In this document: positions 8,304 to 9,370 of the stretch, one piece after another
Position numbering within the stretch: position 1 is the first letter of the stretch
Layout: each line of letters begins with the position of its first letter
Origin: a virus
Reading direction: 5' to 3' (one strand)
DNA: 11,957 bases
UHGV virus genome: UHGV-0339357
Notes under the pieces: generated by a model
What the model was told of the DNA's origin: nothing
The model's database searches: none
What the model saw: only the letters and a program-made list of their open reading frames with translations
Position numbers and translations under genes: made by a program

Positions 8304-9164
8304 TTATACCGCCATCTTTCCTTTAATTAGCGGGTGAGATACATAGTCGTTAAGAACAAAATTATGCGGCTTTGCGAATTGACTCAACCAAAATACCTGT
8401 GATTCTGTGTCCCATTCATCAAATTCATCTGGGAATTTTAATTGTAATTCGCATAAATCCATAGGTTCACGACGCAAAATTTCTTTACATTGTTCTACGT
8501 GATTCATATAGATATGAGTATTACCGCCAGAAAATATCAAATCTCCCGGAATATGATTACATATCTTAGCTACAATATGAACTAACGCAGCATATGATGC
8601 AATATTAAATGGAAGACCGAGGAAAACATCTACTGATCGTTGATACCACTGAAGGTCAAGGTATCCATTACGAACATTAAATTGATAGAACATATGACAA
8701 GGTGGTAATGCCATCTGCTTGAGTTCAGCTGGATTCCATGCTGAAACAATTTGACGCCTATCATTTGGCAGTTTTTTAATACGATCAATAACTTCTATAA
8801 TTTGGTCTACACCACCAAAATCACGCCACTGTTTTCCATAAATTGGACCAAGTTCACCGCTATGGTATCCTAAATCTTTTGCTTGATTTTCGTAATTTTC
8901 ATCCCAAACTGTTTTGCCTTGGATTAACGAATCATGTTGAATTAATCGCAAATCATTGACATTTGTGCTTCCCGATAAAAACCATATTAGCTCAGCAATG
9001 CAAGCTTTCCAGGCGAGCTTCTTAGTTGTTACTGCAGGAAAACCTTTAGTTAAATCCCAGCGTAATTTAGTACCGAACAAAGCAATTGTTCCTGTGCCTG
9101 TTCGGTCATCGGTTTTGTAGCCATTTTCCAGGATATCTTTAATTAAAAATTGGTATTGTTTCAT
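8304..9164 (-). CDS. td: Thymidylate synthase, 286 aa, uninterrupted (no intron)
   Basis: Catalytic-cysteine motif [11 protein letters not shown] plus other ThyA-conserved blocks; 286 aa from MKQYQ; N-terminal two-thirds match my recollection of T4 TS while the C-terminal quarter differs; start ATG overlaps the upstream ORF stop (TAATG). Confidence 0.9.
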
Positions 9165-9370
9165 TAGTTCATCCAAGAATATGTAGAAGGATATTTGGCA
9201 AAGTTAGGCTTATATCCTAATTTAACCATTTGTTTTGCTTTGCAAGTAAATCCTAAAGAACGCTCACCTTTAAGATATTGTTTTGGTGTCATAGGCCCTT
9301 GATGCATCTGCCTACAAATAAAAAGGGCCATAGCATTAGGAACATCCTTAACTTTTAATTTATTGCTCAT
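9164..9370 (-). CDS. Small basic hypothetical protein, 68 aa, located between frd and td
   Basis: Uninterrupted ATG-initiated ORF exactly filling the frd-td gap; its ATG overlaps the frd stop (ATGA) and its stop overlaps the td ATG (TAATG); lysine/arginine-rich; no motif recognised. Confidence 0.55.

Follow-up and report, generated by a model that had tools for sequence, protein, structure and literature searches.

A 68-codon open reading frame (ORF) located between frd and td in UHGV virus genome UHGV-0339357 is, judging from its sequence conservation, a genuine protein-coding gene that specifies an uncharacterised small basic protein. The 11,957 nucleotides (nt) analysed here, referred to hereafter as the window, are a Tequatrovirus segment whose frd-td region is 99.8% identical to those of Shigella phages Sf21 and ESh28. 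The genes of the operon (frd-td-nrdA) all lie on the minus strand of the window, and the order of reading is frd, the 68-amino acid (aa) ORF and td. The account that we favour, on balance somewhat more likely than not, is that the ORF is a real accessory gene in a polymorphic slot, that it was spread recently as part of a cassette and that T4 arrived at its own arrangement by deletion; a role of the product as a binding factor is proposed far more tentatively. The features concerned are these:

9164..9370, TAA stop included, minus strand: the 68-aa basic ORF (PHROG 9550 family), supported by its translation, its orthologue in Sf21 (YP_009619040.1) and a ratio of nonsynonymous to synonymous substitution (dN/dS) of 0.08-0.19
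9367..9370, minus strand: ATGA overlap between the TGA stop of frd and the ATG start of the ORF (9370..9368), read from the sequence
9162..9166, minus strand: TAATG overlap between the TAA stop of the ORF (9166..9164) and the ATG start of td (9164..9162), which have one base in common
9367..9948, minus strand: frd, dihydrofolate reductase (Pfam DHFR_1)
8304..9164, minus strand: td, thymidylate synthase, intron-less (Pfam Thymidylat_synt, residues 2-286, uninterrupted)
9161..9366, minus strand: 206 bp present in the window and absent from T4 by alignment, with AATGA at either end
9117..9372, minus strand: island of near-identity with Dhakavirus, comprising the ORF together with td up to nt ~48; of its 256 nt, 5-6 are mismatched, compared with ~24% divergence in the flanks

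An initial annotation of the window had placed a 68-codon ORF exactly between frd and td, had proposed that translational coupling was kept on both sides, and had stated that in T4 the two genes overlap in ATGA with nothing between them. These statements were borne out. The translation of 9164..9370 on the minus strand is identical to the 68 residues quoted, both overlaps are present, and in T4 (NC_000866) td (143235..145112) shares 4 nt with frd (145109..145690), with no gene between them. From the overlapping start and stop codons, the ORF is predicted to be translationally coupled at both ends. The TAATG type of junction with td is kept in Marfa (Marfavirus) and Serratia phage 4S, and CIP9 (Kanagawavirus) has an overlapping GTG. 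At its 3' end the ORF reads TGGATGA(A/G)C, which places GGA where a Shine-Dalgarno-like site for td would fall. The last ~100 nt of frd are identical in the window and T4, and the ends of the 206-bp insert are placed to within the 5-bp AATGA repeat that is present at both ends.

The protein matched the PHROG 9550 profile over its whole length (E=1.6e-44, residues 1-68 on profile positions 1-68 of 68). A homologue was found by tblastn in 238 phage records, and the frame was intact in 236 of them at a coverage of at least 80%. These records represent a subset of Tequatrovirus, Dhakavirus, Marfavirus and related Klebsiella phages, Kanagawavirus CIP9 and Serratia phage 4S; the Phapecoctavirus homologues found by tblastn were ~42% identical. 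The dN/dS of the ORF was 0.15 relative to Marfa, 0.19 relative to CIP9 and 0.08 relative to 4S, with 21-28 synonymous differences. Differences in length between homologues are in-frame and the family ranges from 66 to 108 aa. Residues R20, G40, M48 and G52 were invariant down to relatives with 28-40% identity, and K4, K6, P11, K34, F41, L51, Y53 and P55 were nearly so. The length of the ORF is itself weak evidence because the mechanical list of ORFs contains many spurious ones of at least 40 aa in other frames. Codon-level conservation is therefore present in a gene that T4 lacks, which are the two points on which the initial annotation had made its account of the ORF depend.

The ORF is already known. 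It is catalogued as PHROG 9550 and pVOG VOG9000 and is widely annotated, although functionally uncharacterised: it has been annotated in over a hundred T4-like phages, in most records as "hypothetical protein" and in several as VOG9000. The PHROG 9550/VOG9000 proteins of Sf21 (YP_009619040.1), pSs-1 (gp245), SHFML-26 (gp61), Klebsiella phage Marfa (YP_009850431.1) and Enterobacter phage CIP9 (YP_009855949.1) are the same gene. The Sf21 orthologue has the same place, length and coupling as the ORF in the window, from which only a single nucleotide and a single residue (R43 in Sf21, C43 in the window) distinguish it. Codon 43 (9242..9244) specifies Arg in almost all homologues from T4-like phages and Lys in a few. 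The R43 form, which is the common one, was present in 332 contigs of a large protein collection, while the exact C43 protein was not found in a collection of 15 billion proteins; Cys43 is either a private R43C substitution or a sequencing error.

Annotation of the ORF varies between records. In PV390659.2, NC_054944.1, MZ571829.1 and MZ502379.1 it is named "flagellar biosynthesis protein" or "DUF4858"; neither name has support from Pfam or NCBIfam and both look like propagated mis-annotations. The records for JS10 and Paracelsus leave the ORF unannotated, and that for ACG-C40 annotates only a 42-codon 3' part. One copy, on an 8.6-kb IMG/VR contig (L014:893-1097), is frameshifted after about codon 30 and may be a pseudogene or the result of an assembly error.

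Comparison of junctions among related phages indicates that the interval between frd and td is a routinely variable slot with three alleles in Tequatrovirus: empty, occupied by an ORF of the PHROG 1928 family, or occupied by the 68-aa ORF. Junctions were typed with a 107-nt probe that spans the T4 junction. The probe matched 476 records, from which an evenly spread sample of 60 was typed. Contiguous T4-type junctions were rare (~4 of the 60). The majority (~44) had an insert of ~380-415 bp or the T2 pattern, and about a fifth (~12) matched on the frd side only, which is the pattern of the 68-aa ORF allele. In T2, RB5, REP1 and the BASEL phage FriedrichZschokke (Bas41), the larger insert encodes a 115-aa ORF of PHROG 1928. 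Of the phages whose junctions the initial annotation had proposed to align, T4 lacks the 206 bp, and T2 and RB5 carry the 115-aa ORF. An insertion of about 206 bp was correctly recognised relative to T4, but to present it as an exceptional addition to an otherwise conserved T4 layout overstates the case, since the slot is variable. The positions of the PHROG 1928 ORF in four of the phages compared are as follows:

PHROG 1928 ORF, 115-126 aa: T2, L029:1411-1758; RB5, L028:1259-1606; Bas41, L030:1256-1603; Marfa, L003:2143-2496

The PHROG 1928 ORF (EcT2_00240 in T2, RB5_230 in RB5, bas41_0068 in Bas41) resembles the 68-aa ORF in that it is an optional occupant of the same slot and its function is likewise uncharacterised. 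The two are unrelated in sequence and differ in size. They also differ in abundance, with 581 records for PHROG 1928 (363 at 90% identity or more and 218 distant) compared to 238 for the 68-aa ORF, so that PHROG 1928 is the commonest occupant of the slot. Furthermore, in Tequatrovirus short spacers set the PHROG 1928 ORF apart from frd and td, whereas the 68-aa ORF overlaps both. Jiaodavirus-type Klebsiella phages carry distant members of PHROG 1928 in their frd-td region, and such members also occur in other T4-like genera. In Marfa, CIP9 and 4S, the PHROG 1928 ORF is followed directly by the 68-aa ORF and both lie between frd and td. Because of this tandem arrangement, we regard both families as old residents of the slot, of which individual Tequatroviruses keep one, the other or neither.

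Three further observations concern the occupants of this region. One BASEL record calls the PHROG 1928 ORF a "putative homing endonuclease", a designation that we rejected since it has no support from Pfam or the PDB. A 119-aa ORF upstream of frd in the window was compared with the ~118-aa ORF found ahead of the small ORF in Marfa, CIP9 and 4S as a candidate homologue, and no match was obtained. In RB5, the 3' end of frd (L028:1225-1269) reads GTATATAAAAATGAAAT and has extra A's ahead of the ATGA compared to T2. The TGA of frd is consequently out of frame, and frd is annotated as 11 codons longer and extending into the PHROG 1928 ORF. Either a genuine variant or a sequencing error in the homopolymer would account for the extra A's.

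The direct overlap of frd and td in T4 is a rare minority allele, probably produced by a deletion whose endpoints lay in short direct repeats. A 9-bp direct repeat, TAAATGAAA, borders the T2-type insert on both sides, as AATGA does the insert in the window; the 5' end of td in T4 is of the T2/REP1 type. Use of T4 as the baseline is misleading because most Tequatroviruses carry some ORF at the junction and distant genera carry both. The composition of the overlaps suggests how the exchange of occupants is tolerated. ATGA is the start of the 68-aa ORF as well as of td, and the TGA stop of frd therefore comes from whichever of the two adjoins it; the PHROG 1928 allele contributes a TGA of its own, in AATGAAATAACG. 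The bases 5' of the ATG of the 68-aa ORF are identical to those 5' of td in T4, and the ORF therefore inherits the initiation context of T4 td. Because the ORF starts in ATGA and, through the TAATG at its end, would pass ribosomes on to td, the operon tolerates an empty slot as well as an occupied one. Neither a promoter-like nor a terminator-like site was found inside or beside the ORF, which suggests that it would be expressed from read-through transcripts of the operon with the help of translational coupling.

The ORF is far more similar between Tequatrovirus and Dhakavirus than are the genes on either side of it. Nucleotide identity between the window and Dhakavirus was 97% for the ORF compared to 81% for frd and 74% for td, and the corresponding synonymous divergence (dS) was 0.08, 0.81 and 2.6. 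Mismatches are dense until 3 nt before the ATG of the ORF, fall almost to nil across the ORF and as far as nt ~48 of td, and then become dense again. This island is the most conserved stretch in the 5.7-kb comparison with Dhakavirus (binomial P ~7.5e-23). In the comparison with T4, td of the window is ~97% identical except for 11 mismatches within nt 16-63 of the gene, and the N-terminus of its product contains QFLIKDIL in ORF-bearing phages of both genera but QDLIKDIF in T4 and T2. Among eleven genomes of Tequatrovirus and Dhakavirus, every pair of ORFs differed by 0-8 nt while the flanks differed by up to 25%, and the ORF with ~48 nt of td was 97-100% identical across the two genera.

The best reading of these data is that a cassette of ~250 bp has recently spread by recombination through both genera. 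The diversity of the ORF is equally low in both, so that transfer in either direction between Dhakavirus and Tequatrovirus would fit. Recombinational spread accounts only in part for the sharp left boundary of the island. An RNA or DNA element was considered as the reason for the conservation of the nucleotides and was rejected: the region of the ORF matched no Rfam family, had no unusual RNA fold (z=-0.28) and contained neither a promoter nor a terminator.

The product has a net charge of +10 and an isoelectric point (pI) of 10.0, in agreement with its initial description as lysine- and arginine-rich, and all members of the family are basic (+7 to +17, pI 9.7-11.1). The AlphaFold (AF2) model built with 35 sequences was consistent, with a predicted local distance difference test (pLDDT) score of 81.7. 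It has helices at residues 13-24, 29-39 and 43-49, and the C-terminal segment packs back. Searches of Pfam, NCBIfam and PADLOC with the protein gave zero families at E≤10, and a profile search of the PDB gave no match, consistent with the earlier failure to recognise a motif. The profile and structure searches recommended at that stage thus yielded a family, PHROG 9550, and a three-helix model, but no functional match. No sequence-profile or structural match was found to helix-turn-helix or other known DNA-binding folds, nor was there a Pfam or structural match to characterised anti-defence proteins, although a dedicated anti-defence library was not searched. A plasmid search found no homologue, and literature searches found nothing on the ORF. 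An exhaustive HMMER profile search of 1.84 billion representatives returned 16 proteins, which were small phage-type relatives except for three weak repetitive matches. The distant homologues, from Phapecoctavirus and uncultured phage contigs, lie amid arrays of small, early-type ORFs of unknown function and not near td.

Two candidate motifs were examined and rejected. A helix-hairpin-helix (HhH)-like motif in SLGFTRKAKQMV has spacing that does not fit and no structural support. A zinc ribbon or zinc finger, which calls for four conserved Cys/His ligands, would have to draw on C19, H23 and the private C43 of the window, none of which is conserved family-wide. Some of the distant members (P0039-P0042 and P0049-P0051) have extra Cys at the equivalents of residues 12, 19 and ~66, a possible sign that this subfamily has a metal site or a disulfide not shared by the T4-like members; a C-terminal extension (GVGDR..NLPLKPY) is present in some. 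Two of the uncultured phage contigs have, on the strand opposite to the distant homologue and ~4.3 kb upstream of it, a Tad2-like (anti-Thoeris family) gene (L025:286-669 and L026:206-739). This association is too loose to count as evidence.

We propose that recombination between co-infecting phages has recently disseminated the cassette, probably owing to an advantage that it confers. The protein would act early in infection by binding a polyanionic partner, either nucleic acid or an acidic protein of the host or phage, and the conserved basic residues K4, K6, R20 and K34 would form the binding surface. It would then be a dispensable factor of the host-takeover or counter-defence type and not an enzyme. 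While an accessory gene in a polymorphic slot is the account we favour, this more specific picture of a non-enzymatic binding protein that serves as a dispensable early accessory factor is offered tentatively, as possible but doubtful. Bolder still, and in our estimation unlikely, is the idea that the cassette is actively sweeping under selection and represents a novel type of small basic factor for counter-defence or host takeover, which moves between T4-like genera by recombination anchored in the 5' end of td. With PHROG 1928 it would make up an ancestral two-gene module, differentially kept and lost, of which T2 has one gene, the phage of the window the other and T4 neither.

An anti-defence factor and a regulator had been among the suggestions of the initial annotation, and the results speak neither for nor against either. 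A specific anti-defence protein, with the slot as an accessory region in which counter-defence genes are swapped, largely overlaps the account we favour and goes beyond it in naming a defence as the target. The alternative unrelated ORFs at a polymorphic locus between conserved genes, the patchy distribution with its signature of a cross-genus sweep, the small size and early-operon position of the gene, and the location of the distant homologues in arrays of accessory genes, in two cases a few kb away from the Tad2-like gene, are what such a role would lead one to expect. We nevertheless give it a low probability, since the protein has no Pfam homology or structural match to a characterised anti-defence protein and no literature on it was found, and since the known DNA-mimic inhibitors are acidic while this protein is strongly basic. 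A role tied to thymidylate synthase or deoxynucleoside triphosphate (dNTP) synthesis, as a stoichiometric partner, an assembly factor or a translational regulator of td, would account for the fact that the ORF adjoins td with overlapping stop and start codons in each of the five Straboviridae lineages compared (Tequatrovirus, Dhakavirus, Marfavirus, Kanagawavirus and Serratia 4S), even when other ORFs separate it from frd, and that the laterally common cassette takes in the 5' end of td. However, T4, T2 and most Tequatroviruses make functional Td without the 68-aa ORF, the homologues in Phapecoctavirus and the uncultured contigs have other neighbours, and the adjacency can be explained by descent together with transfer as a cassette that recombines within td. 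We judge such a role distinctly unlikely.

The two remaining alternatives are essentially excluded. The initial annotation had suggested, as speculation, a remnant of a homing endonuclease, and a degenerate or minimal free-standing enzyme of this kind, or a selfish element that promotes its own transfer, has some appeal in T-even phages, which carry many seg and mob genes between conserved genes (mobE and segG are nearby in T4). The super-conserved cassette with its co-transferred td flank resembles co-conversion, and the alternative occupant of the slot bears the label mentioned above. That label is without Pfam or PDB support, however; GIY-YIG, HNH and LAGLIDADG gave no match at E≤10, 68 aa is too small for the known families (the ORF family itself spans the 66-108 aa given above), and residues of catalytic type are not among the invariant ones (R20, G40, M48 and G52 only), H23 being lost in distant members. 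Nor is the ORF a decaying remnant, because its full length is conserved under purifying selection. We therefore regard the suggestion as very improbable. Even less credible is a non-functional chance or fossil ORF carried along in the operon. The absent or partial annotation in JS10, Paracelsus and ACG-C40 and the frameshifted copy on L014 might be cited in its favour, but dN/dS is far below 1 with many synonymous changes relative to distant genera, the frame is intact in nearly every record, indels are in-frame, and residues are kept in relatives of 28-40% identity in unrelated phage groups.

Comparative genomics of T4-like phages has given rise to the concept of "hyperplastic" or accessory regions that contain small early ORFs, and accessory genes have also been the subject of screens (for example, bioRxiv 10.1101/2023.04.06.535777). 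The 68-aa ORF resembles the ORFs of these regions in being small, optional, patchily distributed, laterally exchanged and located between conserved genes. It differs from them in that it lies inside a core operon of nucleotide metabolism and was found to have neither a promoter nor a stem-loop of its own. One type of mobile cassette in T4-type phages is marked by its early promoter and flanking stem-loop; the 68-aa ORF does not match this type, as no promoter-like or terminator-like site was found in or beside it and its region has no unusual fold. The free-standing homing endonuclease genes of the seg and mob types are likewise optional residents between conserved genes whose flanks are co-transferred, but the 68-aa ORF is far smaller and no nuclease domain was found in it.

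The operon differs from that of T4 at other sites as well. Two extra minus-strand ORFs are present between frd.1 and frd in the window (9948..10205 and 10190..10549), of ~81-85 aa (PHROG 3183) and 119 aa (Pfam DUF7247/PHROG 3566). The frd.1-frd interval is thus another variable slot of the operon because T4 has only a 71-nt gap there. Both td (8304..9164) and nrdB (4255..5433) are uninterrupted, and the spacer between nrdA and nrdB is 51 nt (5434..5484). It follows that three elements of T4 are missing from the phage of the window: the td intron and its I-TevI, the nrdB intron and its I-TevIII, and mobE.

The finding is a modest one, as the ORF had been annotated and its family catalogued. It is of some use in the context of the junction. 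The textbook overlap of frd and td in T4 is an atypical, probably deletion-derived state of a site with three alleles, and the ATGA start common to td and the 68-aa ORF explains how genes can be swapped in a coupled operon without breakage. The ORF also cleanly illustrates a ~250-bp cassette that is near-identical in two phage genera whose backgrounds have diverged. The cross-genus island and the unmatched fold together make the 68-aa protein a reasonable, though not exceptional, candidate for an accessory factor in host takeover or counter-defence.
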